A DNA stretch of 64,000 nucleotides, taken from Clostridia bacterium (GTDB lineage: Bacteria; Bacillota; Clostridia; Oscillospirales; Acutalibacteraceae). Numbering within the stretch: position 1 is the first letter of the stretch; every line of letters begins with the position of its first letter. A program made the position numbers and the translations under genes. Below the pieces are notes generated by a model. The model worked only from the letters and a program-made list of their open reading frames with translations, was not told the DNA's origin and searched no databases. The stretch is from assembly GCA_017451425.1 (NCBI GenBank), contig JAFSPP010000011.1:26510-90509 (forward strand), given 5' to 3'. Shown here piece by piece: positions 4,872 through 53,636 of the stretch.

Positions 4872-4880
4872 AAAAAATAC

Positions 4881-4909
4881 TTGAAATCTTTTTATATATA
4901 TTGTATTAT
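4881..4909 (+). promoter_or_regulatory. Putative sigma-A promoter for the pilin gene
   Basis: TTGAAA (4881-4886), a 17-nt spacer, then TATTAT (4904-4909). It lies about 135 nt upstream of the pilin start. Confidence 0.4.
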
Positions 4910-5043
4910 TTTTTTGATGCCAAAGCACATTTTGGTGTTGTTTAAGGACTTTAGCTTGTGAGGCACAGCACGAGCACTTAAAATAAAGGCATTGTTTAAA
5001 TTTCGTTAAAACAATATTTTTATTTTGAAGGGAGTTTTTTCAA

Positions 5044-5424: not shown

Positions 5425-5458
5425 TTTAGCTTTAACGTTTTAACCTAAAAAACTTTTT

Positions 5459-5498
5459 GAGCCTCGTGCTATTGTGCCAACAGCGCGAGGCTCTTTTA
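5459..5498 (+). terminator. Rho-independent terminator after the pilin gene
   Basis: GAGCCTCG(TGC) at 5459-5469 pairs with (GCG)CGAGGCTC at 5483-5493, followed by TTTT. Confidence 0.6.
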
Positions 5499-5542
5499 AG
5501 TAAGAAGTGACTTTTGTCACAGTGCTGAAAAGGGGATAAACA

Positions 5543-15909: not shown

Positions 15910-16187
15910 ATAATAAATAAAGGCGATGACGAAGACGGTTTTGAGGACCTCTTTCAGAGAGCAGACGGTTGGTGCGAGTCTGCAGTGGGAATCAAGTTGA
16001 CCTATCACTTCAGCAGCTGAGCCCTTGAACACATTTGTTAGTAGGGGACTACGTGAAAGCTACGTCAGTGCGAAGGGGTTGATGGACCCTGAGGGGTAAC
16101 GGGCAATAGCCAATCGTTACAATTTGAGTGGTACCGCGGGTAACTTGTTTTATTCGTCTCAAAGCATTTGCTTTGAGGCGTTTTTTT
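15910..16187 (+). promoter_or_regulatory. T-box riboswitch leader (tRNA-sensing transcription attenuator), probable Ile (AUC) specifier
   Basis: GA/K-turn GCGAUGA (15923-15929). AG bulge AGAGAG (15956-15961). Distal loop GGUUGGUGCGA (15967-15977). Specifier context CCU-AUC-A-CUUC (codon at 16004-16006), closed by GAAG at 15931-15934. T-box sequence AAUUUGAGUGGUACCGCGGG (16121-16140). Terminator CGTCTCAAAGCA/TGCTTTGAGGCG plus T7 (16155-16187). The terminator's 5' arm CTCAAA can pair instead with the T-box TTTGAG. Confidence 0.85.
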
Positions 16188-16258
16188 ATTCCCCTCATCT
16201 GCCCCTTTGGGGCACCTTCTCCCCCGGGAGAAGGCATAACAGGAAAGGAATGGTTGTT

Positions 16259-18517
16259 ATGGAAACTAAACAGGAAATCGTTGAGGTAGTGCAGAGAATC
16301 AAGGAGATGAGAGATATCTCCGGCTTTTCTGTCGCTGACATGGCTGAGAAGACCGAACTTACCGAGGAACAGTACCTTGAGTATGAATCCGGTAAGGTGG
16401 ATCTGCCGTTTACGTTCGTGCATAAGTGTGCGCTGGCGTTCGGTATCGGTATTGCTGACTTGCTTGAAGGCCAGTCGGCAAGGCTTTCTTCATACACCGT
16501 GACGAGAAGGAACGGTGGCCTTGTAACGGCAAAAGAGGACGGCATTACCATTCAGAACCTGGCTTCAATGTTCAAGGACAGACTTGCCGACCCGTATTTC
16601 TGTATTTACGAGTATGACGAGTCCCTTCAGGACAAGCCCATAAAGCTTGTTGAGCATGCGGGCCATGAGTTCAACTTCGTTATTAAGGGATCACTGAAGG
16701 TTCAGGTCGGTGACCATGTCGAGACCCTTCACTCAGGTGACTCCATTTACTTTAAATCCTCAATACCTCACGGCGAGCTGGCGGTAGACGGCGCGCCCTG
16801 TAAATTCCTTTCCATAATTTTAAACTCCGACGTTACGGAGGAGCTGTACAAAGAACAGGCTATCCGCCGTGCGGCTCAGTCTGAAAAGCTCGTTGTTGAG
16901 AAGTTTGTTGAGTGCACTGAAGATGAGGAAGGCGCTCTTGTTGACATTAAGTTCCATGACGAGGATAAATTCAACTTCGCTTTCGACGTTGTCGATGAAA
17001 TCGCGAAGAACAAGCCCGAAAAGGTGGCTATGATTCACCTTGATAAGGACAAGAATGAGACTAAGTTCACCTTCAGGGATATGAAGGACCTGTCAAACCA
17101 GGCTGCGAACTACTTTACATCGCTCGGTATCCGCAAGGGCGACCGCGTAATGCTGGTATTAAAGCGCAGATATGAGTTCTGGGTTTCAATTCTTGCACTG
17201 CATAAAATAGGGGCAATTGCGATTCCTGCGACACACCTTCTGAAGGACCATGACTTTGAGTATAGGTTCAATGCTGCAGAAGTTAAGGCGATTATCTGCA
17301 CATGTGATGATGATACGCCTTCATCGGTTGATCGTGCTTGTGCGTCTTGTCCTTCGGTTGAGACGAAGATTATTGTGGGAGCTTCACGCTCGGGCTGGCA
17401 CGATTTTGATGCAGAGTTTAAGCTGTTCAGCCGCAGATATCTGCGTACGGCTGAGTCGCCCTGCGGTGATGATCCCATGCTTATGCTCTTCTCTTCGGGA
17501 ACATCGGGTTATCCGAAGATGGTACTTCATTCCTGCAAGTATCCTCTGGGACACTTCCATACCGCGAAGTACTGGCATTGTGTAAGAAACAACGGTGTAC
17601 ACCTTACAATTTCAGATACCGGCTGGGGCAAGGCTCTCTGGGGCAAGCTTTATGGCCAGTGGATGTATGAGGGTGCAGTATTCGTATATGACTTTGAGAG
17701 ATTCCATGCAGCAGACATTCTGCCGCTGTTTGCGCAGTATAAGATAACTACATTCTGCGCACCTCCGACCATGTACCGTATGCTTATCAAGGAGAACCTG
17801 ATGAACTACGATCTGTCCTCAATCGAGCATGCTACGGTTGCCGGTGAGGCACTGAACCCTGAGGTCTTCTATCAGTTCAAGAGGGCGACAGGTCTTGAAC
17901 TTATGGAGGGCTTCGGTCAGACCGAGACTACGCTTACGGTCGCGAACCTTGTCGGTATGACGCCGAAGCCGGGTTCAATGGGCAAACCCTGCCCGCTTTA
18001 CGACGTTGTTTTGCTTGATCCTTCGGGCAAAGAGGTCGGCGTAGGCGAAAACGGCGAAATCTGCGTGAAGACAAAGAACGGAGCACCCTGCGGACTCTTC
18101 CTCGGATACTACAAGGACGAGGAGGCCACAAAGGCCGCATGGCATAACGGTTACTACCATACAGGTGATATTGCCTGGAAGGATGAGGATGGATACTTCT
18201 GGTACGTCTCACGTGTTGACGATGTCATCAAGTCATCCGGTTACCGCATCGGCCCGTTCGAGATTGAAAACGTTATCATGGAGCTTCCTTATGTTCTTGA
18301 GTGCGGCGTAACTGCCGCTCCTGATGAGGTAAGGGGACAGGTAGTCAAGGCGTGTATCGTTCTGGTTCCCGGAACCGAAGGCACTGACGAACTGAAGAAG
18401 GAAATTCAGAATTACGTCAAGAAAAACACCGCTCCTTACAAATATCCGCGAATTGTCGAGTTCAGAACTGAACTTCCTAAAACTATTAGTGGAAAAATCA
18501 TAAGAAAAGAATTATAA
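16259..18517 (+). CDS. Fusion protein: XRE-type HTH + cupin domain + AMP-forming medium/branched-chain acyl-CoA synthetase (ACSM/MACS-like)
   Basis: Start chosen at ATG 16259, 9 nt after GGAAAGGA; the ORF-track start at 16124 lies inside the T-box. HTH: FSVADMAEKTELTEEQYLEYESGK. Cupin: HAGHEFNFVIKGSLKVQVGDHVETLHSGDSIYFKSSIPHG. Adenylate-forming motifs: FSSGTSGYPKMV, YHTGDIAWKDEDGYFWYVSRVDDVIKSSGYRIGPFEIE and ISGKIIRKEL. It is one uninterrupted frame. Confidence 0.8.
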   Translation: METKQEIVEVVQRIKEMRDISGFSVADMAEKTELTEEQYLEYESGKVDLPFTFVHKCALAFGIGIADLLEGQSARLSSYTVTRRNGGLVTAKEDGITIQNLASMFKDRLADPYFCIYEYDESLQDKPIKLVEHAGHEFNFVIKGSLKVQVGDHVETLHSGDSIYFKSSIPHGELAVDGAPCKFLSIILNSDVTEELYKEQAIRRAAQSEKLVVEKFVECTEDEEGALVDIKFHDEDKFNFAFDVVDEIAKNKPEKVAMIHLDKDKNETKFTFRDMKDLSNQAANYFTSLGIRKGDRVMLVLKRRYEFWVSILALHKIGAIAIPATHLLKDHDFEYRFNAAEVKAIICTCDDDTPSSVDRACASCPSVETKIIVGASRSGWHDFDAEFKLFSRRYLRTAESPCGDDPMLMLFSSGTSGYPKMVLHSCKYPLGHFHTAKYWHCVRNNGVHLTISDTGWGKALWGKLYGQWMYEGAVFVYDFERFHAADILPLFAQYKITTFCAPPTMYRMLIKENLMNYDLSSIEHATVAGEALNPEVFYQFKRATGLELMEGFGQTETTLTVANLVGMTPKPGSMGKPCPLYDVVLLDPSGKEVGVGENGEICVKTKNGAPCGLFLGYYKDEEATKAAWHNGYYHTGDIAWKDEDGYFWYVSRVDDVIKSSGYRIGPFEIENVIMELPYVLECGVTAAPDEVRGQVVKACIVLVPGTEGTDELKKEIQNYVKKNTAPYKYPRIVEFRTELPKTISGKIIRKEL

Positions 18518-23003: not shown

Positions 23004-23010
23004 ATTAGTG

Positions 23011-23120
23011 TACTTTGTAACTGACGGATCAGTGGGGTTTACCACATGGGAGCAAAGTAAAGTAATATGTCGACCGTCTGGGCAGTCCCTCAGTACACGA
23101 GGGACTGCCTTGTTTATTTT
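23011..23120 (+). promoter_or_regulatory. ZTP (pfl-motif) riboswitch with an intrinsic-terminator expression platform
   Basis: P1 is ACTTTG/CAAAGT. Conserved ACUGACGG, P2 GUGG/CCAC and GGGAGC are present. After a linker comes CGACCGUCUGGGCA. The pseudoknot GACGG:CCGUC covaries relative to the consensus GGCGG:CCGCC. The terminator GGCAGTCCCTC/GAGGGACTGCC (23081-23109) plus a T-run shares GGCA with the aptamer's 3' end. Confidence 0.8.
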
Positions 23121-41483: not shown

Positions 41484-41491
41484 AAAAAAAG

Positions 41492-41519
41492 AACGGACCC
41501 GAAACCGGGTCCGTTTTAT
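41492..41519. terminator. Bidirectional Rho-independent terminator shared by argF (+) and padR (-)
   Basis: AACGGACCCG (41492-41501) pairs with CGGGTCCGTT (41506-41515). It is flanked by an A9 run upstream and a T-rich run downstream. Confidence 0.7.
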
Positions 41520-42062
41520 TTATTCGAATATTTTAATGCAGCGCTCAAGCCAGGCGACGTATGACTCCTCTCTGAGCACCGCTCCGTCGAGGACCATATA
41601 GTCGCCGAGTTCGCGCGTGCCTTTCTTCGGGGGAGTATCATTGAACACCCTGGTTTTAATTTCAGCCAGGAAGTCGCGCTTCTCCATATGCTGAACGCAC
41701 TGGCTTTTAAGGAGCTTTAAGAACTCTTCATCCGTAAGGCTCTCAGAGTAGAAGGTGCGAAGGCGGAAGATATCCTTGTGAGTTCGCTCTATTGCCACAT
41801 CATCTTTAAGCCAGTCAAGAAATTCCTTTCTTCCGGCAGGGGTGATGGTATAGAGTTTTTTCTCCATTTTCTCACCGCGGATATCAGTGTCAAAATCGAG
41901 CATACCTTCCTCGACAAGCTTTTTGAGCTCAGGGTAGATCTGGCTGTGCTCCGCATGCCAGAAGCTGGTGAGAGCTCTGTCTTCGAAGGCTTTCTTAATG
42001 TCGTATCCCGTCATGGGTTCTCTGTTGACGAGGCCTAAAATAGCGTATTTTAAGTTTCTCAT
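41520..42062 (-). CDS. PadR-family transcriptional regulator
   Basis: Start chosen at 42062 (RBS AAGGAGAG). The N-terminus MRNLKYAILGLVNREPMTGYDIKKAFE...FWHAEHSQIYPELKKLVEEGML is the canonical PadR winged-helix. Confidence 0.8.
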   Translation of the reverse strand: MRNLKYAILGLVNREPMTGYDIKKAFEDRALTSFWHAEHSQIYPELKKLVEEGMLDFDTDIRGEKMEKKLYTITPAGRKEFLDWLKDDVAIERTHKDIFRLRTFYSESLTDEEFLKLLKSQCVQHMEKRDFLAEIKTRVFNDTPPKKGTRELGDYMVLDGAVLREESYVAWLERCIKIFE

Positions 42063-42139
42063 GGCGCTCTCCTTTGTCTGTTCGCATAGATTATAACTTA
42101 AATATCCATCCGCCTCAACTGTCAAAACCGACAAAACGA

Positions 42140-42159
42140 ATATGTAAATATTTACATAT
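42140..42159. promoter_or_regulatory. Perfect 20-bp palindrome, putative PadR operator (ATGT-N8-ACAT)
   Basis: ATATGTAAAT|ATTTACATAT is exactly self-complementary. It contains ATGT (42142-42145), 8 nt, then ACAT (42154-42157), the dyad described for PadR-family operators. It lies in the divergent intergenic region. Confidence 0.6.
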
Positions 42160-42227
42160 TTGTCAATGGATTTTTGAATCACGGCAGGCTAATATAGTAT
42201 TGTGAGATTTTATATCGGAGGGATAAT

Positions 42228-42653
42228 ATGAGCGTTTTCAAGCATCCTGTTCATTTGCCCGAACCGTCTTTTACGGAACTTTACAAAGGTTTCGTTGAGT
42301 TTGATGCGGACATTGAACGCATGGAAATCAAACCCGGCAGCCACAGAGCTTTCAAAGTTACCGGAGGCTGTGTAACCGGAAAAGTAAATGCAGATATAGT
42401 ACCTGTTGTGTCAACTTTGTGGAAGTTTGTTGACGCATCAGGTGCTTTGCGTTTTGAGAGCAAGTTTGTGGCAAAACCGGGAAAACTTGTCACAATCTCG
42501 TGCGATGTATACGGCAGCAATAAAGATATGTTTCATATACTTTATGATACCGGCTGGCCGAAATATACATGGCTCGCTCATACGATTACATTTATAAAAG
42601 TTGACAGGGTTGAGGGTAACAGAGTTTCCTTCACCTGCCTGCAGGTTGACTGA
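42228..42653 (+). CDS. Small beta-rich protein, DUF3237-like (weak)
   Basis: 141 aa with RBS GGAGGG. The pattern VTGGCVTGKVNADIVPV...DASGALRFESKF...GKLVTISCDVYG loosely follows the DUF3237 layout and the neighbouring paralog. Confidence 0.35.
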   Translation: MSVFKHPVHLPEPSFTELYKGFVEFDADIERMEIKPGSHRAFKVTGGCVTGKVNADIVPVVSTLWKFVDASGALRFESKFVAKPGKLVTISCDVYGSNKDMFHILYDTGWPKYTWLAHTITFIKVDRVEGNRVSFTCLQVD

Positions 42654-42665
42654 GGAGGTGCGCAT

Positions 42666-43154
42666 ATGAAAACAAAGTTTCTTTATTACACTGAGTGCGC
42701 ATGCCCCATGGCCATTCATCCGGTCGGTCTCAAAGGCCTCGGTGTGCAGGTCGTAATCCCCATTGAGGACGGACCCGTTGAGGGCGATGTAATAAACGGC
42801 TGCATCAAGCCGCTCGGAGCTGACTGGAATACCATTCATCTGCTGGGAATTACATCGGACGTTCTCGCGAAATACCAGATACATACTGATGACGGTGCCG
42901 TAATCGATCTCTTCACAAACGGCAGGATGAAAGTGAAGTGGAAGGACGTTCCAAAAAACATAATCACCCTGAAACATCATCTTTCCGACTATCTCTATTT
43001 CAGGGAGTTCCTTTACTTCCATACCGATGACGAGCGTTACAAGTGGCTTGAAACCACACCGTGCTTCGCGATAATATCAATGAAATTTACGCTTAAGAAC
43101 AGAGTACCTTATTTCCTTATTTCTTACAAGGCTTATGCCATAGAGGAGGATTGA
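42666..43154 (+). CDS. DUF3237-family protein
   Basis: 162 aa with RBS GAGGAGG. PIEDGPVEGDVINGCIKPLGADWNTI...AKYQIHTDDGAVIDLFTNG matches the recalled DUF3237 signature (GG-x-f-x-G...G-x-v-x-p-GGADW...Y-x-l-x-TDDGa-I). Confidence 0.5.
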   Translation: MKTKFLYYTECACPMAIHPVGLKGLGVQVVIPIEDGPVEGDVINGCIKPLGADWNTIHLLGITSDVLAKYQIHTDDGAVIDLFTNGRMKVKWKDVPKNIITLKHHLSDYLYFREFLYFHTDDERYKWLETTPCFAIISMKFTLKNRVPYFLISYKAYAIEED

Positions 43155-43155
43155 C

Positions 43156-43923
43156 ATGGATTATAAGATCAGACCTTTTACCACAAAGAGCGAAGAGGGC
43201 AACACAATAAGAGGAATTATTGTATCGCCCAAGAACTTTACGGGAAAACTTCCCGCCATTGTCATGTCACATGAGTTCTGCGCGAACATGTGGACAACTT
43301 TCAGATACGCCAGAAAAGTCGTAAATGACGGCTATGTATGCTTCTGCTACGACTTTACCCGCTCCGGTTCCGGTATCTCCGGCGGCAGCTCAATCGGCAT
43401 GAGTGCCGTCCAGGAGTCCAGAGATGTAATCTCCGTTCTGCGCTATGCTCAGTCCTGCGACTTCGTCGACAAGGATGATATCACACTCTGGGGCTGTTCA
43501 CAGGGCGGTATGGCAACTGCACTTGCCGCTCCTGAAGTCGAAGACGAGATTAAGAGAATAATACTTTACTATCCGGCATTGTCCATCTGTGATGACGCCA
43601 GAAAAGGTTCAATGATAACCGCGCGTTTTGACCCTCAGAATCCGCCCGAGAAATTCTGGTGCGCAATCGTTCATGTAGCAAGCAATTACTGTACTGACGT
43701 AATTGACCTTGACCCGTATGAGCAGATCTGTAAGTTTAAAAAGCCGGTACTTTTAATCCACGGCACGAAGGACCATATCGTAAATGTATCCTATTCAAGA
43801 GAAGCTGCGGAGAAATACCCGTGCTGCGAGTATCACGAATTCCCGGCTGAGCATGTCTGGGTAGGCGGCGGTGCCAAGAAGGCAGTCGCATTCACACGTG
43901 ATTTTCTGAGAAATAATAAGTGA
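43156..43923 (+). CDS. Alpha/beta hydrolase, cinnamoyl/feruloyl-esterase-like
   Basis: Nucleophile elbow GCSQGG, the later HGTKDHIV segment and a C-terminal His context. The overall order resembles the Lactobacillus/Butyrivibrio cinnamoyl esterase family as I recall it. Paralog of 50188-50952. Confidence 0.6.
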   Translation: MDYKIRPFTTKSEEGNTIRGIIVSPKNFTGKLPAIVMSHEFCANMWTTFRYARKVVNDGYVCFCYDFTRSGSGISGGSSIGMSAVQESRDVISVLRYAQSCDFVDKDDITLWGCSQGGMATALAAPEVEDEIKRIILYYPALSICDDARKGSMITARFDPQNPPEKFWCAIVHVASNYCTDVIDLDPYEQICKFKKPVLLIHGTKDHIVNVSYSREAAEKYPCCEYHEFPAEHVWVGGGAKKAVAFTRDFLRNNK

Positions 43924-43930
43924 GGTAATT

Positions 43931-45544
43931 ATGGCAAAATTCGTAACGGCGGCTCAGGCTGCTGAACTTATTGAAGACTGCGCGACTCTCGCCGTCGCCG
44001 GAATGGGACTTTCCGGCTGGGCGGAGGAGATAGCCTGCGCCATCCGTGACCGGTATAAAGAGACCGGTCATCCGAAAGGTATCAACTTGAAGCAGGCCTC
44101 GGCTCTCGGCGACTGGGGTCACGGCAACAAGTTCGTGGGCTGGGATCGCGTAAAACGCGACGAGCCCGATACCGAGCACGGCGCGCGTGGTGCGACACGC
44201 CTCGGCGAGGCCGGACCCGGCCTCGTCACCAAATGGACCAGCGCGCATATCGGCTCGGCCTTCTCGCTCTGCGACCAGGCACGTGCCGAGCAGCTCGAGA
44301 GCTACTGCCTGCCGCAGGGAGTAATAGTCAACCTGTGGCGGGAGATAGCGGCAGGCCGTCCCGGTCTTATAACAAAGACCGGACTCGGCACATTTGTCGA
44401 CCCCCGCGTAGAGGGCGGCCGTATGAATGCGTCCGCAAAGGACGAAATAGTCAAGGTTGTTGAATTCGGAGGAGAGGAGTATCTCTACTATCCCGGATTT
44501 TCAATAGATGTTGCAATACTTCGCGGCACTATAGCCGATGAGAACGGTAATATCTCTTTCGCTCACGAGTCCGTAATCAATGAGGGACTTGCGGTTGCTG
44601 AAGCCACAAAGAACACAGGCGGTATCGTCATTGTTCAGGTCGAATACATCGCAAAGAAAGAGACATTGAATCCCAAGGAAGTAAAGATTCCGGGCGTACT
44701 TGTCGACTATGTCGTAAAAGCGAACGATCCCATGTCATGTTGGCAGGCAGAAGGCGACTACTGGCAGCCTTCCTACTCCGGCCAGATTAAAATTCCCCTC
44801 GGTGAGATCAAACCGATTCCTTTCGACGAGAGAAAAGTAATCTGCCGTCGCTGCGCCATGGAGCTTAAAGCCGGCAATCTCATAAACCTCGGAGTGGGAA
44901 TGCCTGCCGACATATCGAAAGTTGTCGCTGAAGAAGGACAGCTTGAGAAAGTCACAATGAGTACCGAGTCAGGTATGGTGGGCGGTGTGCCTTCGGCTCT
45001 GCCGAGCTTCGGAAGCGCATACAACCCGGAAGCCATAATGACTCCGAATGACATGTTTGACCTCATTTCCGGAGGCGGCCTTGACGTCACCTGCCTCGGA
45101 ATAGGAGAGGTCGATAGGGACGGAAACAACAATGTCTCCCGCATGGGCAAGCGTCTTACCGGCCCCGGCGGATTTATAGACATAACATCTTCAACGAAAA
45201 AGGTTATCTTTGCCGGAACATTCACCGGTCACGCTGAGTATGAAATAGGCGACGGCAGGATAAAGATCACAAAGGAAGGCGACATTAAGAAGTTTGTAAA
45301 TACTGTCGGACAGATTACTTTTGCCGGTCAGTACTCTCCTGATACCCAGGAGGTCTTCTATGTGACCGAGAGAGCCGTTTTCAAGCTCATAGACAAGAAG
45401 ATGACCCTTATAGAGATTGCGCCCGGTATAGACCTCGAGAAGGACATTCTGGCGCAGATGGATTTTGAACCTGCAATCGCTTCTGATTTAAAGGAGATGG
45501 ATCCTGCAATATTCCGTGAAACCTGGGGAGGACTCACATTATGA
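43931..45544 (+). CDS. Family I acyl-CoA:carboxylate CoA-transferase, fused alpha-beta (Pct/YdiF-like)
   Basis: 537 aa and collinear with propionate CoA-transferase-type enzymes: ...ETGHPKGI..., GLGTFVDPR, YYPGF..DVAILRGT.ADENGN, and the catalytic Glu context MSTESGMVGG. Confidence 0.8.
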   Translation: MAKFVTAAQAAELIEDCATLAVAGMGLSGWAEEIACAIRDRYKETGHPKGINLKQASALGDWGHGNKFVGWDRVKRDEPDTEHGARGATRLGEAGPGLVTKWTSAHIGSAFSLCDQARAEQLESYCLPQGVIVNLWREIAAGRPGLITKTGLGTFVDPRVEGGRMNASAKDEIVKVVEFGGEEYLYYPGFSIDVAILRGTIADENGNISFAHESVINEGLAVAEATKNTGGIVIVQVEYIAKKETLNPKEVKIPGVLVDYVVKANDPMSCWQAEGDYWQPSYSGQIKIPLGEIKPIPFDERKVICRRCAMELKAGNLINLGVGMPADISKVVAEEGQLEKVTMSTESGMVGGVPSALPSFGSAYNPEAIMTPNDMFDLISGGGLDVTCLGIGEVDRDGNNNVSRMGKRLTGPGGFIDITSSTKKVIFAGTFTGHAEYEIGDGRIKITKEGDIKKFVNTVGQITFAGQYSPDTQEVFYVTERAVFKLIDKKMTLIEIAPGIDLEKDILAQMDFEPAIASDLKEMDPAIFRETWGGLTL

Positions 45545-46683
45545 TACTTGATGAGAAACGCCTGCTTATGAGAAAGCTCTGCCGCGAGTTCGCCGAGAAC
45601 GAATTCACAGATGAACTTCTCGACAGGCTTGAGGAGACGGGCGAATTCGACTGGGACATCTTTCATAAGATGGGACAGTACGGTTTCTGCGGAGTGAAGA
45701 TTCCGAAGGAATACGGCGGACAGGGCGGAGACTCGCTCGACTATGTCATCATGGTTGAGGAGTTCGCAAAAGTCTCACCCGTGCTTTCGCTCTACGCAAA
45801 CACTTCAAACTCACTCGGCGGCGGACCTCTTATGATCTGCGGCAATGAGGAACAGAAGGCAAAATACCTGGGCGATGTAGCCTCGGGTAAAAAGATAATG
45901 ATATTCTGTCTCACGGAGCCGGGGGCCGGTTCCGACGCGGGCGGCACAATAACAACCGCGAAAGAGGACGGGGACTACTTCATCTTGAATGGCCGCAAGA
46001 CCTTTGCGTCCGGCGCACCTATAGCTGACTATGCCTGCGTTCTTGCAAAGACGGATACGTCTCTCAGGGGCTCAAAAGGCATTTCCATGTTTATTGTTGA
46101 TATGAAGCTTCCGGGTGTTAACTGCGGCAAGCCGGAACACAAGATGGGCATTGTCGGTTACCCGACATCCGACGTCATCTTCGAGGACGTCAGGGTCCAT
46201 AAGGACGATATGGTCGGCAAGCGCGACAAGGGCTTTGGCGCCGCCATGGCGACCCTCGATGGCGGCCGTCTCGGTATAGCCGCCCAGTCTCTCGGTATAG
46301 CCGAGGGCGCATATGCCGAAGCGCTCAAGTATGCGAAAGAGCGCAAACAGTTCGGACAGCCGATTGCAAACTTCCAGGCAATCAGTTTCATGCTCGCTGA
46401 CATGGCGACCGAGATTGAGGCCGCGAGAGAGCTTATCTATTCAACTGCGATAAAGAAGGACGCGGGAGATCCGGAGGCATCAAAGCTCTGCGCTATGTCC
46501 AAACTCTTCGCATCAGAGATGTGTAACAGAGTGGCATACAAGGCCGTTCAGATTCACGGCGGCTACGGCTACATCAAAGAGTACAAAGTCGAGCGTTTCT
46601 ACAGAGACGCTCGTATAACCTCGCTTTACGAGGGCACATCGCAGATACAACAGCTCGTAATCGCAAATACGATTTTAAGATAG
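45541..46683 (+). CDS. Acyl-CoA dehydrogenase family enoyl-CoA reductase (Bcd/CarC-like)
   Basis: 380 aa. FCLTEPGAGSDAG, the GR KTFASG-type motif, QIHGGYGY and the catalytic Glu in LYEGTSQIQ. An ATGA overlap links it to the transferase gene. Confidence 0.9.
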   Translation: MILDEKRLLMRKLCREFAENEFTDELLDRLEETGEFDWDIFHKMGQYGFCGVKIPKEYGGQGGDSLDYVIMVEEFAKVSPVLSLYANTSNSLGGGPLMICGNEEQKAKYLGDVASGKKIMIFCLTEPGAGSDAGGTITTAKEDGDYFILNGRKTFASGAPIADYACVLAKTDTSLRGSKGISMFIVDMKLPGVNCGKPEHKMGIVGYPTSDVIFEDVRVHKDDMVGKRDKGFGAAMATLDGGRLGIAAQSLGIAEGAYAEALKYAKERKQFGQPIANFQAISFMLADMATEIEAARELIYSTAIKKDAGDPEASKLCAMSKLFASEMCNRVAYKAVQIHGGYGYIKEYKVERFYRDARITSLYEGTSQIQQLVIANTILR

Positions 46684-46693
46684 GAGGGCACAT

Positions 46694-47494
46694 ATGAAAT
46701 ACATAGTTTGCGTAAAACAGGTGCCCGACACTCAGGGCAAGGTTGCGGTAAAAGAGGATGGTACAATGGACCGTTCCAAGATGGCAGCCATTATAAATCC
46801 GGATGACCTCAATGCCGTTGAGGCAGCGCTTACGCTGAAGGACAGCAATCCCGATGCAAAGGTCGTCGTAGTCACAATGGGACCTCCGCCGGCTGCGGGT
46901 ATGCTCCATGAGCTCCTCGCCATGGGTGCTGATGAGGCCGTTCTGGTATCCGGCCGTGAATTCGGCGGCTCGGACACATTCGCCACATCACAGATTTTAG
47001 CCGGCGCCATATCGCATATCGGCATTGAAGCAGATGATGTCATCTTCTGCGGCCGCCAGGCGATAGACGGCGATACGGCGCAGGTAGGACCGCAGATTGC
47101 CGAGAAACTCGGCATACCGCAGATCTCCTACGCCGCCGACATTGAACAAAACGGCAATACGCTTAAAGTAAAAAGAGTCCTTGAGGACGGCTATATGACC
47201 ATAGAGGCTGACACACCCTGTCTTATAACCTGCATCAAGGAACTCAATAAACCGAGATATATGACGGTTTCCGGCATTCTGGAATTTGATAAGAAGCCGT
47301 ACTCTGTCTTTGACTATGAAACACTCAAGGATGAGCCCCTCATAGAAGCTGACACAATCGGTCTTAAGGGCTCACCGACAAACGTATACAAGTCATTCTC
47401 ACCGCCGCAGAAGGCTCCGGGCAGAATGATTGCCGCCAATGAGAGCGGCGTGAAAGAGCTGGCGCAGGAACTTGCCGCCAAGCATATCATATAA
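46694..47494 (+). CDS. etfB: Electron transfer flavoprotein beta subunit
   Basis: MKYIVCVKQVPD, INPDDLNAVEAAL, GRQAIDGDTAQVGPQIAEKLGIPQ. Confidence 0.9.
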   Translation: MKYIVCVKQVPDTQGKVAVKEDGTMDRSKMAAIINPDDLNAVEAALTLKDSNPDAKVVVVTMGPPPAAGMLHELLAMGADEAVLVSGREFGGSDTFATSQILAGAISHIGIEADDVIFCGRQAIDGDTAQVGPQIAEKLGIPQISYAADIEQNGNTLKVKRVLEDGYMTIEADTPCLITCIKELNKPRYMTVSGILEFDKKPYSVFDYETLKDEPLIEADTIGLKGSPTNVYKSFSPPQKAPGRMIAANESGVKELAQELAAKHII

Positions 47495-47507
47495 GGAGGA
47501 AAAAGAG

Positions 47508-48602
47508 ATGTATGACTGCACTGACATAAAGTCCTTCTCAGGCGTTATGGTCTTCTGTGAGGCCCGTGAAGGCAAAATCAATACCACATCCTTCGAACTC
47601 CTTTCTGAAGGAAGAAAACTTGCCGATGACCTCGGTACGGAACTTTCCGGACTGCTTATAGGCAAAGACGTGAAAGGCCTCGCCGGACAGATCGGCGGAT
47701 ACGGTGCCGACAAAGTATATGTTGTCGAGTCACCGCTTCTTGAAACTTATACCACTGACGCTTATACTAAAGTCATAAGCGATGTTGTTCACGAGAAAAA
47801 GCCCGAGATACTTCTCATAGGCGCCACGAACATAGGCCGTGATCTCGGCCCGCGCTGCGCCGCAAGGCTGCACACCGGCCTCACAGCCGATGCCACGCAC
47901 CTCGACATTGACACGGGCAAGTATCTGGACTTCCTTCGTGAATCCTCGACAATCGATGTCGATTCGATGAAATGGGATATGGAGGACAAGGGCCTTAAAA
48001 TGACCCGTCCCGCTTTCGGCGGTCACCTTATGGCGACAATTATCTGCCCGCGTTTCCGCCCGCAGATGTCAACCGTCAGACCCGGTGTTTTGAAATGCGC
48101 CGAGTTTGATCAGGCAAAGGCTGATTCCGTGGTCATCGAGGAACTGAAGACCGACCTTTCGGATGCCGACCTTAAGACACGTGTTCTTGAGGTTGTCAAA
48201 GAGACAAAGGAGATAGTCGATCTCCTCGGCGCCGAAGTCATAGTCTCAGTCGGACAGGGTATTGCAAAGGATCCCGAAAAAGGTATCGCTCTCGCATCGG
48301 AACTCGCCGAGGTACTCGGCGGAGGAGTCGTCGGCGCATCCCGCGCCGCAGTTGACGCCGGTTTCATCTCGGGCGACCATCAGGTCGGCCAGACGGGCAA
48401 GACCGTCAGGCCGCATATATAAGTCGCCCTCGGTATCTCCGGCGCCATCCAGCATAAGGCGGGCATGCAGGACTCCGAGTATATTATCGCCGTCAACAAT
48501 TCGGAGACGGCCCCGATATTTGAAGTCGCGGACTACGGTATCTGCGGAGACCTCTATACCGTTGTTCCCATGCTTATTAATGCGGTGAAAGAAGTGAAAT
48601 AG
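47508..48602 (+). pseudogene. etfA: Electron transfer flavoprotein alpha subunit interrupted by an in-frame TAA (48420-48422)
   Basis: RBS AGGAGG precedes ATG 47508. The frame reads ...[79 protein letters not shown] in a single reading frame. The stop sits where conserved EtfA has Tyr ([15 protein letters not shown]). The next gene's ATG abuts the downstream TAG. Confidence 0.8.
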
Positions 48603-50159
48603 ATGATTACACTCCGTAACATTACAATCGATCAGGCTCTCCGTGAGGCTGTCGAAAAGTACCCGGACAACAAGGCTATTGTCTACGGTGATGAATGCTA
48701 CACCTACCGGGAATTTGATGAAGCCGTCACAAGAATGGCATCCGGTCTTATCGACTGTGGTGCCAAAAAAGGCGACAGGGTAGGTGTCTGGTGCGATACA
48801 TCGCCCAAGGCCATTATTGCCATGTTCGCCTGTTTCAGGGCCGGCTTTGTGCTGACAATGTTCAACACCTCACTGCTTCATCAGGAGATGATGGAGCTTA
48901 TGAATGCGATCGATATCAAGCAGCTGATTATCGGTGAGGGTTACAAGAACGTGGATTTCATAAAGGAGTCCGAACTCTTTTATGACAATGTTCCCGCACT
49001 GCAGAATATTCTCTACATCGGCAACGACATGACGAGAAGAGAGTATAAGAATATTGCCAGGTACAGGGGTACGGCTGACAATCTTGTTTCGGAGTTTTCA
49101 GAGAAGGTCACTCCCGAAGATGAAGCCTGTATTCTCTTCACCAGCGGCACGACTCATACTGCAAAGCCTGTTGTGACAACCAATTACAGCAGGGTAAACA
49201 GCGCACTCTTGCAGGGAGAGGACATTAAAACCACCGAAAACGATGTTTTCTGTATTACGATGCCGATCTTCCACTGCTTCAGCCTTAATGTCAACATTAT
49301 GGCACCTCTTTTTAACGGCGCATGTATCTGTATCCCGAAATCAAGGCATACGGGTGACGTAATTGAAGCGGTAGTAAAGCATAAATGTACCGTCATGAGC
49401 TCTGTACCTTCTTTCTACCACGCCCTGATAGTGAAACAGGATCTTTCAAAATTCGATATATCAAGCCTCCGTGTAGGCTTTATAGGAGGCAGCGCCTGTC
49501 CTCCCGGACTTTTCAAAGAGATTGAGGAAGCCCTGGGCTTCACGCTTCTCTCGAGTTTCGGCCAGACTGAGGCCACTGCAGGCATAACCGTTGCGGGCCT
49601 CGATGATTCCCTTGAGGAACGCGCAACGACACTGGGTCATTTCATGGATTATATTCAGTACAAATTCACCGATGAAGGTGAGATATGCATCAAGGGATAC
49701 AACGTAATGAAGGGCTATTTCAACGATCCTGAGGCTACGGCAAGAGTTATCGACAGCGAGGGATGGCTTCATACCGGAGATACCGGTTATCTCAATGAGA
49801 ACGGAAATCTCGTCTATACCGGCAGGTGCAAGGAGATCATCATCCGCGGCGGCGAAAACATCAGCCCGATGGAGATTGAGAAGGTCATGGCCGATGACGG
49901 AAGAATTAGAGCCGTCAAGGCAATTGGCGTACCCGACAGCCACTATGGTGAGGAGGTTGCTCTCTGTGTTGTAAAGGAGGAGGGTGCTTCAATCACCGAA
50001 AATGATATCCGTGCCATCTACAGAATGAAACTCGCGGATTTCAAGAATCCCAAGTACATCTATTTCTTCAACGAGCTTCCCGAAAATGAATTCGGAAAGG
50101 TAAACATAGAGGAACTCAGAAAAGAAACGGCATATAAGCTCGGCGATTACCGCGAATAG
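48603..50159 (+). CDS. AMP-forming acyl-CoA ligase (ANL superfamily)
   Basis: FTSGTTHTAKPV, FGQTEAT, HTGDTGYLNENGNLVYTGRCKEIIIRGGENISPMEIE and a C-terminal GKV. Confidence 0.85.
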   Translation: MITLRNITIDQALREAVEKYPDNKAIVYGDECYTYREFDEAVTRMASGLIDCGAKKGDRVGVWCDTSPKAIIAMFACFRAGFVLTMFNTSLLHQEMMELMNAIDIKQLIIGEGYKNVDFIKESELFYDNVPALQNILYIGNDMTRREYKNIARYRGTADNLVSEFSEKVTPEDEACILFTSGTTHTAKPVVTTNYSRVNSALLQGEDIKTTENDVFCITMPIFHCFSLNVNIMAPLFNGACICIPKSRHTGDVIEAVVKHKCTVMSSVPSFYHALIVKQDLSKFDISSLRVGFIGGSACPPGLFKEIEEALGFTLLSSFGQTEATAGITVAGLDDSLEERATTLGHFMDYIQYKFTDEGEICIKGYNVMKGYFNDPEATARVIDSEGWLHTGDTGYLNENGNLVYTGRCKEIIIRGGENISPMEIEKVMADDGRIRAVKAIGVPDSHYGEEVALCVVKEEGASITENDIRAIYRMKLADFKNPKYIYFFNELPENEFGKVNIEELRKETAYKLGDYRE

Positions 50160-50187
50160 GCCGGAACTGACAGAGGAGATTGGTACC

Positions 50188-50952
50188 ATGGCAATTAAAA
50201 TCCGACCTTTTAAGATTAAAAGCAGCGGTGTCCGCCTGTGCGGATACAGCTTAGTGCCGAAAGACGCTGACGGGAAGCTTCCTGCTGTAATCGTAAGTCA
50301 CGGTTTCGGCAGCAATATGCTCATCTCATACTCATATGCCAGGGTCTTCGTTGATATGGGCTATGCGGCCTTCTGTTACGATTTCCCGAATTCGGGAAGT
50401 AGTATCTTCTCCGGAGGCTCAGGCACCCGGATGAGCGTCATAGACAACAAGGAAGACCTGAAGAATGTTCTTGAGTATGTCCGCTCACTTGATTTTGTTG
50501 ACACAGACCGCATAATACTTGCCGGCTGTTCACAGGGCGGAATGGTCACTGCGCTGACGGCACCCGAGGTTGAAGACAGGATTGAGAGAATCGTTCTTTA
50601 TTACCCCGCTCTCTGTATACCTGACGATGCCCGCGCGGGCAATGTAATCGGTACGAAGATAGATCCGGATAACATACCGGATACCTTCCGCGCAATCGTT
50701 TTCAAGGTCGGAAAGAAGTATCCGCTTGATTCGATGACGCTTGACCCTTACAGGGAAATCTGCGGTTTTAAGAAACCGGTATTCATAGTCCACGGCAAGG
50801 AAGATAAGATAGTGAACATCGATTATTCCAGACGGGCCGCGGAACTTTATCCGGACTGCAGGCTTGTTGAGGTGCACGGTGATCACGGATTCATTTTGCG
50901 GGGCGGACGTGCATCAAAAAAGGCAACGAGAAAGTATCTTTCGGAAATTTAA
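50188..50952 (+). CDS. Alpha/beta hydrolase, cinnamoyl/feruloyl-esterase-like (paralog of 43156-43923)
   Basis: Same length class and collinear with its paralog: KIRPF, LPAVIVSHGF, CYDFPNSGSS, AGCSQGGMVTALTAPEVEDRIERIVLYYPAL and FIVHGKEDKIVN. The DNA around the GCSQGG codons is near-identical to the paralog. Confidence 0.6.
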   Translation: MAIKIRPFKIKSSGVRLCGYSLVPKDADGKLPAVIVSHGFGSNMLISYSYARVFVDMGYAAFCYDFPNSGSSIFSGGSGTRMSVIDNKEDLKNVLEYVRSLDFVDTDRIILAGCSQGGMVTALTAPEVEDRIERIVLYYPALCIPDDARAGNVIGTKIDPDNIPDTFRAIVFKVGKKYPLDSMTLDPYREICGFKKPVFIVHGKEDKIVNIDYSRRAAELYPDCRLVEVHGDHGFILRGGRASKKATRKYLSEI

Positions 50953-50969
50953 GGGAGGAGAGAGCTTTT

Positions 50970-52205
50970 ATGAGCAAAATAAAACAGGAAAAAATCCGCC
51001 GGCTGACACTCGCCGGAGAGAACAAGCAGCCTGACTGCGTGCCCATTACCAGTCAGATAGAGACTTTTGCCTACGGCTATGCGGGTACGACAATAGCCGA
51101 GGTTAAAAAGAATCCGATAAAGGGTGTTCAGGCTTATAAAAAGTGCTACGAGGACTTCTATTTTGACGCTTTCTTCGAGCCCATTTTCGTCCATCCGTTT
51201 GCATTTTTCGACGGACTGGGTGCTGATTCATATTTTGCATCCGATGACGGTGTAACTGCTCAGCACAAGGAAATAGCTCCCATGGAGGGCACGGAAGAGG
51301 AGTACAAAGCACTTATCAAGGACCCGACAAAGTTCTTCCTCGATGTCATAAATCCGAGAAAGTTCCCGAACTTAAACGGTGCCGAATCCGGCCAGAGAAA
51401 AGCCGTTGTCGATGCAATGAAGGGCGCAGGAAGCTTTCTTGTAGGTATGGGCGGAGGCAATATGGCACTCCCGATACTTACCGACACCCCGGGTTTCATG
51501 GGCGGTTTTATAGAGATGCCGTATGACAATATCTTTGACTTCCTTCGCGGATTCAAAGGCTCATCCATTGATATGCGCCGTCATCCGGACCTCCTTGTTG
51601 AGGCGACAGAGGCTATCTTTGAGACATACACAACTGAGTGTGAGAAAATCTACTCATTCCTGAATGCTCTCTCATCGCCGCCGAGACTCGTAAAGAACGC
51701 ATACAATGTATTTGTTAAAGCGGGCGAGCCCGAGTGCTCCTCATTCCCGTGGTTCTTCAATCCCACACATGCGCCTTCTTTCATGAACCAGCAGCAGTAT
51801 GAGAAATTCTACTGGCCGACATATAAGAAAACCCTTGAACTCGTAACCAAGTGGGGCGGACGCACATGTACGCTTCTCGAGGGCGAGTGGGGTCCCGAAA
51901 AGCTTGAACTCTTCAAGGATCTCAAGAAGGATTCTGTAATCCTCTATGTCGAAAATGACGATATATGCGCCGCAAAGAAGCAGGTGGGCGACTACCAGGC
52001 CATAATGGGCGGTATGCCGATATCACTTCTCAAATCCGGCACGAAGAAAGAATGCCTCGATCATACAATGAAGGTCTACGATGAATGTGCTCCGGGCGGA
52101 GGATTCATTTTCACGACCGATAAATCGCTGCTCTCGACAGATGACTGCAATCCCGAAAACCTTAAGGCCGTAAATGCTTTTGCGCATGCATACGGCAGAT
52201 ATTAA
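50970..52205 (+). CDS. Uroporphyrinogen-decarboxylase-fold (URO-D/MtaA-like) family protein
   Basis: 411 aa. N-terminal ...AGENKQPDCVPI... and C-terminal GGGFIFTTDKSLLSTDDCNPENLKAVNAFAHAYGRY resemble URO-D-like methyltransferase/decarboxylase family ends. Assigned from memory of the family pattern. Confidence 0.45.
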   Translation: MSKIKQEKIRRLTLAGENKQPDCVPITSQIETFAYGYAGTTIAEVKKNPIKGVQAYKKCYEDFYFDAFFEPIFVHPFAFFDGLGADSYFASDDGVTAQHKEIAPMEGTEEEYKALIKDPTKFFLDVINPRKFPNLNGAESGQRKAVVDAMKGAGSFLVGMGGGNMALPILTDTPGFMGGFIEMPYDNIFDFLRGFKGSSIDMRRHPDLLVEATEAIFETYTTECEKIYSFLNALSSPPRLVKNAYNVFVKAGEPECSSFPWFFNPTHAPSFMNQQQYEKFYWPTYKKTLELVTKWGGRTCTLLEGEWGPEKLELFKDLKKDSVILYVENDDICAAKKQVGDYQAIMGGMPISLLKSGTKKECLDHTMKVYDECAPGGGFIFTTDKSLLSTDDCNPENLKAVNAFAHAYGRY

Positions 52206-52220
52206 GAGGAGGTATGAACG

Positions 52221-52391
52221 ATGGAGAGAAAATTTTCCGAAATAATCGCCGATCAACTTCAGGGTACCCTGAAAAAGTTTATACCTGTCTTCTGGATACC
52301 GGGAATAGGCAACAGACTTCTTGACAGACTGATGAATTCATATGCCATAAGCCTTCTCTGGAAAGGCTGGGTAATGCTGTCCCTCATGTGA
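52221..52391 (+). CDS. Hypothetical small protein (56 aa), not in the supplied ORF track
   Basis: ATG 52221 lies 8 nt after AAGAGGAGG. It reads MERKFSEIIADQLQGTLKKFIPVFWIPGIGNRLLDRLMNSYAISLLWKGWVMLSLM. The stop is 3 nt before the MFS start, consistent with translational coupling. Confidence 0.3.
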   Translation: MERKFSEIIADQLQGTLKKFIPVFWIPGIGNRLLDRLMNSYAISLLWKGWVMLSLM

Positions 52392-52394
52392 TAT

Positions 52395-53606
52395 ATGAAG
52401 AAGAGATACAGAGTACTCGTAAGCGACAGCTTTCAGCTGATATTCCTGGGCCTTGTCTATGCCTGGAGTATCTTCAAGAAACCGCTGGCTGCCGTTTACG
52501 GGTGGAATGATTCGCAGCTTACATGGACTTTTTCGATTTCGATGTTCATGTTCTGTATAGGCGGTTTCGCAGGTGCGCAGATATCAAAACGCGTACCTCA
52601 TATGGTTATAACATGGATATGTGCCGTACTGATGGGCGGCAGTTTTGTGCTTATGAGCACTATGACCGCTCTGTGGCAGATATATGTCCTCTACGGCGTC
52701 ATAATAGGCTTTTCAGTAGGCGCGGTATACAACTGTATACTTGCCACGGGAAACCGCTGGTTTCCCGACAAGGGCGGCCTTATTGCCGGACTGCTCCTCA
52801 TGTTCTTCGGAGCAGGAAGCCTTGTTTTAAGCCCGCTCTCAAGCTGGCTTATGGAGTCCTTCGGAATAAAACATGCCTTTATGATTATCGGCATTGTTTT
52901 CCTTCTCGTTTTCATCATGGGCGGCTTCTTTGTTGTCGCGCCGAATGAAAAGGAGAGCGAGGAGCTGAAATCGCTCCTCGCAAAGAAAGAGGCCGCGGCA
53001 AAAACTATGCCGCCCGATTTTGAGACAAAAGAGATGCTGAAAGCACCAAGCTTCTGGCTTTATATGCTCTGGTGCATTATGGTCTCCTCAATCGGCCTCG
53101 CACTGCTCGGCCAGATTGCCACAATCTCCGGCTTTGTCGGCCTGACAACCGCGAAGGCGGCCCTGATGGTCAGTCTTTTCGCTGTCTTCAACGGTCTCGG
53201 AAGACTGTTCTTCGGAGGCTTCTATGACAGACGCGGCAGACTTATCACAATGACAATCTTCGGCATATTCTTCATTCTCGGAGGAATAGCGCTTTTCATC
53301 GGTGTTACCCGCGGCGCGGCAGTGCCGGTTATTGTTTCCTTCGTCCTTTTCGGCCTTGCGTATGGCGGTGTCACACCCACCAACGCAAACTTTGCCCGAT
53401 CATACTTCGGAAATAAGAACTACGCCACCAATTTCAGCATCATTAACTTCAACCTGCTTGTTACGGTTTTTCTGGGTCAGTTTGTAGGTTCAACACTTTT
53501 TGTCAAAACAGGAAACTATACTGCGACTGCTATCGCAATATTGATCCTTTCAGTGATTTCTCTCATTCTCCAGTTTTTTATAAAACCGACCGCAAAACCG
53601 GAATAA
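52395..53606 (+). CDS. MFS transporter, oxalate/formate antiporter (OFA)-like family
   Basis: 403 aa with 12 predicted TM helices. The N-terminal LGLVYAWSIFKKPLAAVYGWNDSQLTWTFSISMF is typical of OFA-family MFS carboxylate transporters. Confidence 0.75.
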   Translation: MKKRYRVLVSDSFQLIFLGLVYAWSIFKKPLAAVYGWNDSQLTWTFSISMFMFCIGGFAGAQISKRVPHMVITWICAVLMGGSFVLMSTMTALWQIYVLYGVIIGFSVGAVYNCILATGNRWFPDKGGLIAGLLLMFFGAGSLVLSPLSSWLMESFGIKHAFMIIGIVFLLVFIMGGFFVVAPNEKESEELKSLLAKKEAAAKTMPPDFETKEMLKAPSFWLYMLWCIMVSSIGLALLGQIATISGFVGLTTAKAALMVSLFAVFNGLGRLFFGGFYDRRGRLITMTIFGIFFILGGIALFIGVTRGAAVPVIVSFVLFGLAYGGVTPTNANFARSYFGNKNYATNFSIINFNLLVTVFLGQFVGSTLFVKTGNYTATAIAILILSVISLILQFFIKPTAKPE

Positions 53607-53607
53607 G

Positions 53608-53636
53608 AAAAGGGCTCCCCGCGGAGCCCTTTTGTT
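53608..53636. terminator. Bidirectional terminator between the MFS gene (+) and the GtrA-like gene (-)
   Basis: AAAGGGCTCC (53609-53618) pairs with GGAGCCCTTT (53623-53632), with A-rich sequence on the 5' side and T-rich on the 3' side. Confidence 0.6.

Follow-up and report, generated by a model that had tools for sequence, protein, structure and literature searches.

A PadR-linked gene cluster of uncultured gut Clostridia as a candidate system for the release and reduction of hydroxycinnamates

The window analyzed here is the whole 64,000-nucleotide stretch of contig JAFSPP010000011.1 (positions 26,510 to 90,509; assembly GCA_017451425.1) from an Acutalibacteraceae genome catalogued as Clostridia bacterium, and all coordinates without a locus label refer to it. 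It carries a gene cluster that the original prediction, made from the letters of the sequence, took for a PadR-controlled system combining esterases, a CoA-transferase, an acyl-CoA ligase and an acyl-CoA dehydrogenase (ACAD) with its electron-transfer flavoprotein (Etf), directed at hydroxycinnamates. Twelve co-directional plus-strand genes and a divergent padR gene are bracketed by two strong intrinsic terminators (41490-53633), and every gene listed in the prediction is present at the position given there. The left border is a bidirectional terminator that separates argF from the padR 3' end (41490-41517), with a 12-bp stem, seven GC pairs and T-runs on both strands; the right border lies on the plus strand directly 3' of the transporter gene (53608-53633) and has an 11-bp stem, six GC pairs and a T-run. 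Spacing within the 12-gene string ranges from -4 to 28 bases, and the intergenic region between padR and the string is 165 bp long and contains a palindrome. By its sequence the string forms a single, terminator-bracketed transcription unit. An Rfam scan of the cluster found no riboswitch or other RNA family inside it.

The regulator gene (padR, 41520-42062, minus strand) encodes a protein of 180 aa with an N-terminal winged helix and a C-terminal domain of the Vir_act_alpha_C type (Pfam PadR, 59 bits; Vir_act_alpha_C, 48 bits). Gene calls in related contigs give this 180-aa form; an alternative open reading frame (ORF) of 220 aa, reaching 42182, would cover the palindrome. The best PDB match is the phenolic-acid sensor PadR of Bacillus subtilis (5x11) at 136 bits, compared to 60 bits for the next solved protein of the PadR family; the matched structures include the effector complexes of the B. 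subtilis protein. The two regulators are 42% identical over residues 1-177, that is, over the full length. Both the DNA-contact residues (Tyr20, His38 and Tyr42) and the carboxylate clamp (Arg164, Lys127 and Thr93) are kept in all seven PadR orthologues. The hydrophobic residues Phe33, Leu131, Val157, Leu158 and Ala161 are kept in the window protein; in one orthologue position 158 is His.

A perfect 22-bp palindrome, AATATGTAAATATTTACATATT, occupies 42139-42160 in the padR-operon intergenic region and is the predicted PadR operator, as judged from the sequence itself and from its likeness to the padC operator. The padC operator crystallized with B. subtilis PadR is AACATGTAAATAGTTACATGAT (PMC5728393), and the window core ATGTAAATATTTACAT is identical to the padC operator core ATGTAAATAGTTACAT at 15 of 16 positions. 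A minus-strand promoter-like site for padR (TTGACA-16-CATATT, 42166-42139) overlaps the palindrome. The shorter motif first pointed out at this place, ATGT-N8-ACAT at 42140-42159, is present as the inner part of the 22-mer, but with one bare occurrence in the window against 0.83 expected by chance it is not significant alone. The palindrome is considered significant because of its position, its full 22-bp length, its near identity with the padC operator and its conservation in six related loci (L002, L008, L011, L014, L015 and L017), all of which have the same box between padR and the operon. The view of the regulator as one of the phenolic-acid type therefore holds, since the B. subtilis sensor is its best relative and clamp, DNA contacts and operator are all kept. 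PadR is likely a phenolic-acid-responsive repressor of the operon and of itself, acting at a padC-type operator; it would sense a carboxylate of hydroxycinnamate size with altered recognition at the ring end. The genetic arrangement also parallels the B. subtilis PadR-padC pair in that padR is divergent from its target. The target itself is different, as the decarboxylase gene padC is replaced here by an 11-kb reductive operon.

PadR-type boxes were also seen at other places in two of the related loci. Locus L008 has a second box, ATGTAATAGTTTACAT, between the hydrolase and CoA-transferase genes (3829-3852 of that locus), which suggests an internal regulated promoter. In L007 the intergenic region is without an exact box, and three boxes (11488-11580) lie 3' of padR, beyond the terminator that ends the small ORF; the first of them with its flanking bases, TTGTCAATGG, is almost identical to the operator region of the window. 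Such a placement suggests a local rearrangement.

The reductase module consists of an ACAD-family gene followed by the two Etf subunit genes, all on the plus strand. The ACAD-family protein (45541-46683), a putative enoyl-CoA reductase that retains the catalytic Glu in YEGTSQ, belongs to a CarC-related clade. Among solved structures its best match is CarC, the caffeyl-CoA reductase subunit of Acetobacterium woodii (6fah_C; 483 bits, 58.7% identity), compared to 378 bits and 49.7% identity for Bcd of Clostridioides difficile (5ol2), and identity to the Bcd proteins of C. difficile and A. fermentans is 47-50%. A housekeeping butyryl-CoA dehydrogenase is rejected, as the protein is less similar to Bcd than to CarC and thl, hbd and crt are absent nearby. 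EtfB (46694-47494, 266 aa) is of the bifurcating sequence type and has CarD as its best solved relative (258 bits, 50% identity; 210 bits for the Etf of C. difficile Bcd). The intact form of EtfA is closest to CarE (353 bits, 55% identity; 309 bits for the C. difficile Bcd-Etf). Scores of EtfB on the solved bifurcating Etfs are 258, 210, 180, 142 and 135 bits and on non-bifurcating ones at most 100, and EtfA behaves likewise. The EtfA alignment begins at residue 64 of CarE and at its own residue 6, so that the N-terminal ferredoxin-like domain, which in CarE carries two [4Fe-4S] clusters, is missing, and the protein has an insert of ~21 residues. Bcd-EtfAB bifurcates electrons with no such domain. 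The term "electron-bifurcating" used earlier for the car-type core fits the sequence type of the Etf, whereas the missing CarE ferredoxin domain and the Acr type given by NCBIfam speak against taking bifurcation for granted here.

The etfA gene of the window (47508-48602, plus strand) is interrupted by an in-frame TAA at 48420-48422, which was overlooked when EtfA was listed as a plain gene. The frame then continues to 48602, and the product is cut to 304 aa with loss of its FAD-binding end. The window has CAT...TAA...CAT at a place where four contigs, ~99.7% identical to it elsewhere, have CGT...TAC...CAC and encode an intact EtfA of 364 aa; a search of other assemblies for the truncated 304-aa product found none on record. 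The stop codon appears to be either strain-specific or a base-calling error, and unless the base call is wrong the reductase is probably inactive in this strain.

Around the reductase stand the genes expected to supply and activate its substrate. The CoA-transferase (43931-45544, plus strand) is a fused alpha-beta protein of family I, of the YdiF/Pct/FadX type (PDB YdiF 2ahu, 364 bits; NCBIfam FadX, 423 bits; Pfam CoA_trans), and the AMP-forming acyl-CoA ligase (48603-50159, plus strand, 518 aa) matches Pfam AMP-binding at 249 bits. Taken together with the reductase, these enzyme types recall the core of the A. woodii operon carA2-carB2-carC-carD-carE: a ligase and a CoA-transferase that would form a CoA loop are present, and CarC, CarD and CarE are the best solved relatives of ACAD, EtfB and EtfA at 59, 50 and 55% identity. 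The parallel with the car operon drawn in the original prediction is supported at the level of enzyme types, with several differences. The window EtfA has lost the N-terminal ferredoxin domain, carries the ~21-aa insert and scores as an Acr-type Etf; the CoA-transferase is a family I enzyme similar to YdiF and Pct and is likened to CarA by enzyme type; PadR, two esterases, a methyltransferase-like protein and its 56-aa partner, two DUF3237 proteins and a transporter are added; and the host belongs to a lineage other than Acetobacterium. No gene of the cluster changes faster than the ligase gene, with 45-50% identity between species whose ACAD proteins are 85-90% identical. Within the species of the window, a clustered patch of single-nucleotide polymorphisms was seen in the ligase gene (L001, 8430-8534), which suggests replacement or recombination.

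Two plus-strand genes encode paralogous hydrolases that are 49% identical: hydrolase 1 (43156-43923, 255 aa) and hydrolase 2 (50188-50952, 254 aa). Hydrolase 1, with a GCSQGG nucleophile motif, is a predicted intracellular serine esterase of the cinnamoyl/chlorogenate type, and it passes the cutoff of Pfam BD-FAE. Its top PDB match is the cinnamoyl esterase LJ0536 of Lactobacillus johnsonii (3pf8; E 2.9e-21, 31% identity), followed by matches to chlorogenic acid esterase (10bv/8skm), Butyrivibrio Est1E (2wtm) and ferulic acid esterase (7z2u). The motifs GCSQGG, HGTKD and AEH align with the Ser-Asp-His triad of LJ0536, and neither N-terminus has a hydrophobic, signal-like stretch. The proposed cinnamoyl/feruloyl esterase type is consistent with these matches. 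Clustering with unrelated peptidases or lipases was considered and rejected, as such proteins appear only far down the list, below the cinnamoyl, chlorogenate and feruloyl esterases, which are the best matches of both hydrolases. Size, membership in the alpha/beta fold family and triad are shared with LJ0536 and Est1E, whereas identity is only ~31% and the window has two paralogues inside a reductase operon. The last gene of the string (52395-53606, plus strand) encodes a transporter of 403 aa from the major facilitator superfamily (MFS; Pfam MFS_1, 114 bits), a candidate importer of hydroxycinnamates or an antiporter of substrate and product. Its earlier description as an OFA-type MFS protein is right as to the superfamily; the OFA subfamily (159 bits) comes second to the SfMCT-type lactate/monocarboxylate transporters, the closest NCBIfam model being SfMCT L-lactate MFS at 259 bits (cutoff 320).

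The first two genes of the operon encode a pair of small proteins, both earlier called DUF3237-like. For the second, DUFb (42666-43154, plus strand, 162 aa), the DUF3237/UPF0311 barrel is evident from sequence (Pfam DUF3237, 67 bits; PDB 4pux, 3c5o and 3g7g). For the first, DUFa (42228-42653, plus strand, 141 aa), the assignment holds by fold only: the Pfam DUF3237 score is 19.5 bits, under the cutoff of 24, and the top 16 Foldseek matches of its AlphaFold model (predicted local distance difference test score, pLDDT, 60.6) are all DUF3237 structures, including PhnH. DUFa is therefore described as a divergent DUF3237-fold beta-barrel. It is clade-restricted, with 15 homologues, all at least 62% identical, in a word-indexed search of a 5.8-billion-protein database. 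Comparison of DUFa with DUFb by BLASTP and shallow hhalign gave no similarity. Enzymes of this family include PhcF and PhcG of Sphingobium sp. SYK-6, stereospecific DUF3237 decarboxylases acting on DCA-CC, and PinX of Novosphingobium, a relative that likewise decarboxylates and opens a furan ring. By its chemical name DCA-CC is the same as 8-5' benzofuran diferulic acid, which occurs in grass cell walls. By analogy with PhcF, PhcG and PinX, DUFb is a candidate for a decarboxylase that needs no cofactor or for a ring-opening enzyme, and the comparison suggests that the pair may handle 8-5' benzofuran diferulate. PhcF and PhcG are two enantiomer-specific enzymes, and the window has two adjacent DUF3237-fold genes. 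On the other hand, the characterized enzymes serve aerobic catabolism of lignin dimers, and DUFa and DUFb are likened to them by family membership.

A protein of 411 aa (50970-52205, plus strand) follows hydrolase 2. It has no Pfam match of its own, and its structural model (pLDDT 91.5) has its best fold matches among UroD structures and also matches an MtaA-like methyltransferase. In the PDB it matches CdmB (9rui, E 4e-18), which in A. dehalogenans is the methyltransferase I (MT I) component of a corrinoid system and adopts a UroD-like TIM barrel. Of the two functions first proposed for this URO-D fold, methyltransferase or decarboxylase, the former is supported by membership in the MT-I family of corrinoid O-demethylases. 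Ferulate and other methoxylated substrates would suit a protein of this family. In a Eubacteriaceae genome and an isolate of the Oscillospiraceae, homologues with 36% identity lie in canonical operons with TetR, MT I, a B12-binding corrinoid protein and a Pterin_bind MT II. In contrast to these and to the CdmBCA systems, the window clade has no adjacent corrinoid protein, MT II or activating enzyme, and has instead a 56-aa protein (52221-52391, plus strand), always encoded 3' of the MT-I-like gene. This small protein has a conserved C-terminus, W[IV]M.SLM, is found at 41-79% identity in all cluster-bearing species, with a 69-aa form in L010, and is absent beside distant MT I genes. An exhaustive HMMER search found ~5 real representative clusters of it among 1.84 billion proteins; two long matches, P0227 and P0231, were discarded as translated repeats. 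The URO-D-fold protein and the 56-aa protein paired with it thus represent a separate and so far unstudied branch of the MT I family of O-demethylases. The most economical guess would be O-demethylation with partners encoded elsewhere. In L010 a 45% homologue of the URO-D-fold protein and the 69-aa partner lie divergent from an ECF/DUF4430 uptake operon headed by a cobalamin riboswitch (9523-9741 of that locus, minus strand), the only such riboswitch found. The arrangement gives a weak hint that this branch may be linked to B12.

Conservation of the cluster was surveyed by tblastn over 90 loci. Copies that are identical or nearly so were found in metagenomes and in a pair of metagenome-assembled genomes (MAGs), GCA_016287255.1 and GCA_016287955.1. 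Relatives with URO-D-fold proteins 63-84% identical to that of the window were found in MAGs labelled Acutalibacteraceae, Ruminococcaceae UBA1785, 'Candidatus Limimonas egerieequi' and Clostridia, with horse faeces and water-buffalo abomasum (one case each) among their sources. A core of padR, CoA-transferase, ACAD, EtfB, EtfA, ligase, URO-D-fold protein, 56-aa protein, MFS transporter and at least one hydrolase is present in all related species with enough contig, and the number of hydrolases per relative varies from one to two. The gene order is less constant. Locus L007 has its URO-D-fold gene and small ORF upstream of padR, and L008 has no DUF3237 pair and keeps everything else. The core is kept through rearrangements in at least seven related species, from samples of horse, buffalo and human origin, and this speaks for a functional unit. 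Farther upstream in L007, 4-7 kb from the URO-D-fold gene, a Hydrolase_4 gene and a divergent gene for a 703-aa Oxidored_FMN/Pyr_redox_2 protein were noted (3108-6131 of that locus); this domain pair has been reported for the cinnamate reductase FldZ.

From this gene content we propose, with moderate confidence, that the operon frees hydroxycinnamates such as ferulate from their esters and hydrogenates the side chain, serving as a PadR-inducible catabolic or electron-sink unit of uncultured Acutalibacteraceae-like Clostridia in herbivore and human guts. All support for this proposal comes from homology and gene context. Its core, namely PadR-controlled esterases, a CoA loop and an ACAD-Etf complex acting on hydroxycinnamates, survived every computational test applied, several of which were able to refute it.

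The proposed mechanism would run as follows. With no inducer present, PadR would sit on the 22-bp palindrome and block both divergent promoters. A hydroxycinnamate-like aryl-propenoate would enter the interdomain pocket of PadR, held by the retained clamp of Arg164, Lys127 and Thr93 and facing Asp in place of His at its ring end, and expression would follow. Small hydroxycinnamate esters or the free acids would be taken up through the MFS protein, which resembles a monocarboxylate transporter (MCT), and the two cytoplasmic cinnamoyl-esterase-type hydrolases would yield the free acid. The AMP-ligase would make the first acyl-CoA and so prime the CoA loop; the CarC-clade ACAD would then reduce the 2,3-double bond with NADH electrons delivered through EtfBA. 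Finally, the family I CoA-transferase would take CoA off the saturated product and load it onto another substrate molecule, and the phenylpropionate would leave the cell. Two further steps are more speculative and would be accessory ones. The MT-I-like protein and its 56-aa partner might strip the methyl groups from methoxylated substrates of the ferulate and sinapate type, with a corrinoid partner encoded elsewhere, and the DUF3237 pair might carry out a PhcF/PhcG-like decarboxylative ring opening of the 8-5' benzofuran diferulate of grass cell walls.

Several observations weigh against the proposal. In PadR, His154 is replaced by Asp in all seven orthologues, and the substitutions Ser134 to Ile and Gln32 to Ser are likewise invariant among them. 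In B. subtilis PadR, where these three positions are not so replaced, His154 forms a hydrogen bond with the phenolic hydroxyl of the effector and is essential for binding of p-coumarate; together with Arg164 it has been called absolutely conserved among PadR orthologues. Because position 154 is Asp, the window protein is not a strict orthologue of the phenolic-acid PadR, and the ring end of its effector may be a different one. For the ligase the matches are unspecific, with scores of 201 bits with oxalate-CoA ligase and 181 bits with 4-coumarate:CoA ligase in the PDB. The CoA-transferase is similar to YdiF, Pct and FadX, and the transporter is closest to the L-lactate MFS proteins. In NCBIfam the intact EtfA passes the AcrA cutoff (652.6 against 600 bits) and EtfB falls just under that of AcrB (468.8 against 475), a model on which CarD scores only 323. 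By these scores the Etf resembles that of Acr, whereas the ACAD is not an AcrC and cannot be shown to be a CarC. The Etf, the CoA-transferase and the transporter would each suit a short-chain enoate as well. An identity of 59% to CarC does not fix substrate specificity, and a survey of the genus took Acetobacterium homologues below 53% identity as no sign of caffeate reduction. The cluster has no corrinoid protein, MT II or activator in any species, nor were any found among the genes of the ~50 kb of the window that were scanned. Lastly, ACAD-Etf modules at 75-82% identity are common in gut Clostridia in unrelated contexts that have neither esterases nor PadR. The reductase is accordingly a portable module in gut Clostridia, and the aromatic reading rests on the companion genes of this locus.

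Two such modules were recorded in other contexts. In L091 (5315-12080) an ACAD-EtfBA module is accompanied by a ligase, a 4HBT thioesterase, an MFS transporter and a PucR-type regulator; in L093 (3143-8809), from a Faecalibacterium MAG, a CoA-transferase-ACAD-EtfB-EtfA string at 75-78% identity occurs with TetR, and its CoA-transferase is Pct-like. As for the wider family, CarA accepts caffeate, 4-coumarate and ferulate, and a recent preprint places AcdA, the aryl-acrylate reductase of C. sporogenes, beside CarC in a sequence-similarity network and proposes that carC homologues of gut bacteria reduce cinnamate.

Of the alternatives to an energy-yielding catabolic unit, the one that survives best keeps the same chemistry and changes the role. 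The operon might stand in for PadC as an enlarged stress response to phenolic acids, a detoxification in which the Etf passes NADH electrons to the ACAD with no reduction of ferredoxin. The regulator and the operator are indeed those of the padC stress response, the EtfA has no ferredoxin domain with the two [4Fe-4S] clusters of CarE, and its nearest named family is Acr. The acryloyl-CoA reductase of C. propionicum, a member of that family, is not known to bifurcate. Against this, EtfB and EtfA match all the solved bifurcating Etfs much better than the non-bifurcating ones, the Bcd complex bifurcates with no ferredoxin domain either, and an energy-saving CoA loop suggests high flux. We regard detoxification as possible, though not as what we expect.

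The true substrates could also be larger than single hydroxycinnamates, namely dimers of the lignin or lignan type or other methoxylated phenylpropanoids (diferulates, sinapate esters), with reduction of the monomers as a side activity. All bacterial DUF3237 enzymes for which we found functional evidence act on such dimers, the clade-invariant changes at positions 154 and 134 alter the ring end of the PadR pocket, and the hosts live on grass cell walls rich in diferulate. This alternative is rather unlikely, however. Locus L008 dispenses with the DUF3237 pair while keeping everything else, so the pair is accessory; dimers are not known to be accepted by either the MCT-like transporter or the CarC-like pocket; and the resemblance of DUFa and DUFb to PhcF and PhcG is one of family.

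The weakest of these alternatives, in which the reductase would reduce a short-chain aliphatic enoate (for instance acrylate or crotonate, or a similar acid freed from an ester) as a variant of Pct plus AcrABC and the phenolic link would be regulatory only, shares with Anaerotignum/Clostridium propionicum the Etf subunits at or near the NCBIfam equivalog cutoffs and the Pct-like CoA-transferase, but is improbable because the ACAD lies far below the AcrC cutoff (406.5 against 640 bits) and no closer to that model than CarC itself (428), because lactoyl-CoA dehydratase genes are lacking in and near the cluster in every species, and because it gives no role to the cinnamoyl-type esterases, the PadR protein with its padC-type operator, the O-demethylase-family protein or the DUF3237 proteins, neighbours typical of aromatic-compound metabolism. 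An fld-type reductive pathway for aromatic amino acids was likewise rejected, the cluster having neither a phenyllactate dehydratase nor a family III transferase.

Release and reduction of hydroxycinnamates thus remains our preferred reading of the operon. We found no description in the literature of a cluster of this composition, in line with the earlier suggestion of an uncharacterized variant pathway, although car-type reduction of aryl-propenoates is itself known. The new elements are the PadR control, the built-in esterases, an Acr-type Etf that lacks the ferredoxin domain, an orphan MT I accompanied by a small protein, the two DUF3237 genes and the host lineage. A bolder version would make the locus the first anaerobic route for the ferulate and dehydrodiferulate cross-links in the cell walls of grasses. 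Here the DUF3237 pair would open and decarboxylate both enantiomers of 8-5' benzofuran diferulate, the orphan MT-I protein and its 56-aa partner would carry out O-demethylation or a new reaction with no corrinoid protein or MT II of their own encoded alongside, and the ring end of the PadR pocket would have been retuned by the change of His154 to Asp. We consider this version quite doubtful.

The flanks of the cluster consist of pur and arg housekeeping genes upstream and genes for a GtrA-like protein, a phosphoribosyltransferase and YfhO downstream. A ZMP/ZTP riboswitch (Rfam RF01750, 61 bits; 23007-23090, plus strand) lies just 5' of purE and heads the pur run. Farther upstream, a plus-strand ORF of 797 aa (16124-18517) combines HTH_19, Cupin_2 and a complete AMP-binding ligase, an unusual architecture.

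Gut microbes have long been known to de-esterify, hydrogenate and demethylate dietary hydroxycinnamates. Genes for such steps have been established mainly in A. woodii, C. sporogenes, lactobacilli and for a few flavin reductases. A self-contained, regulator-linked operon would offer testable candidates for these steps in a dominant and poorly studied gut lineage of horses, ruminants and humans, and the near identity of its operator to that of padC makes electrophoretic mobility shift and reporter work straightforward. If the DUF3237 pair does act on 8-5' diferulate, the locus would also bear on ferulate cross-links, which have been associated with the ruminal digestibility of forage (PMC11884732).

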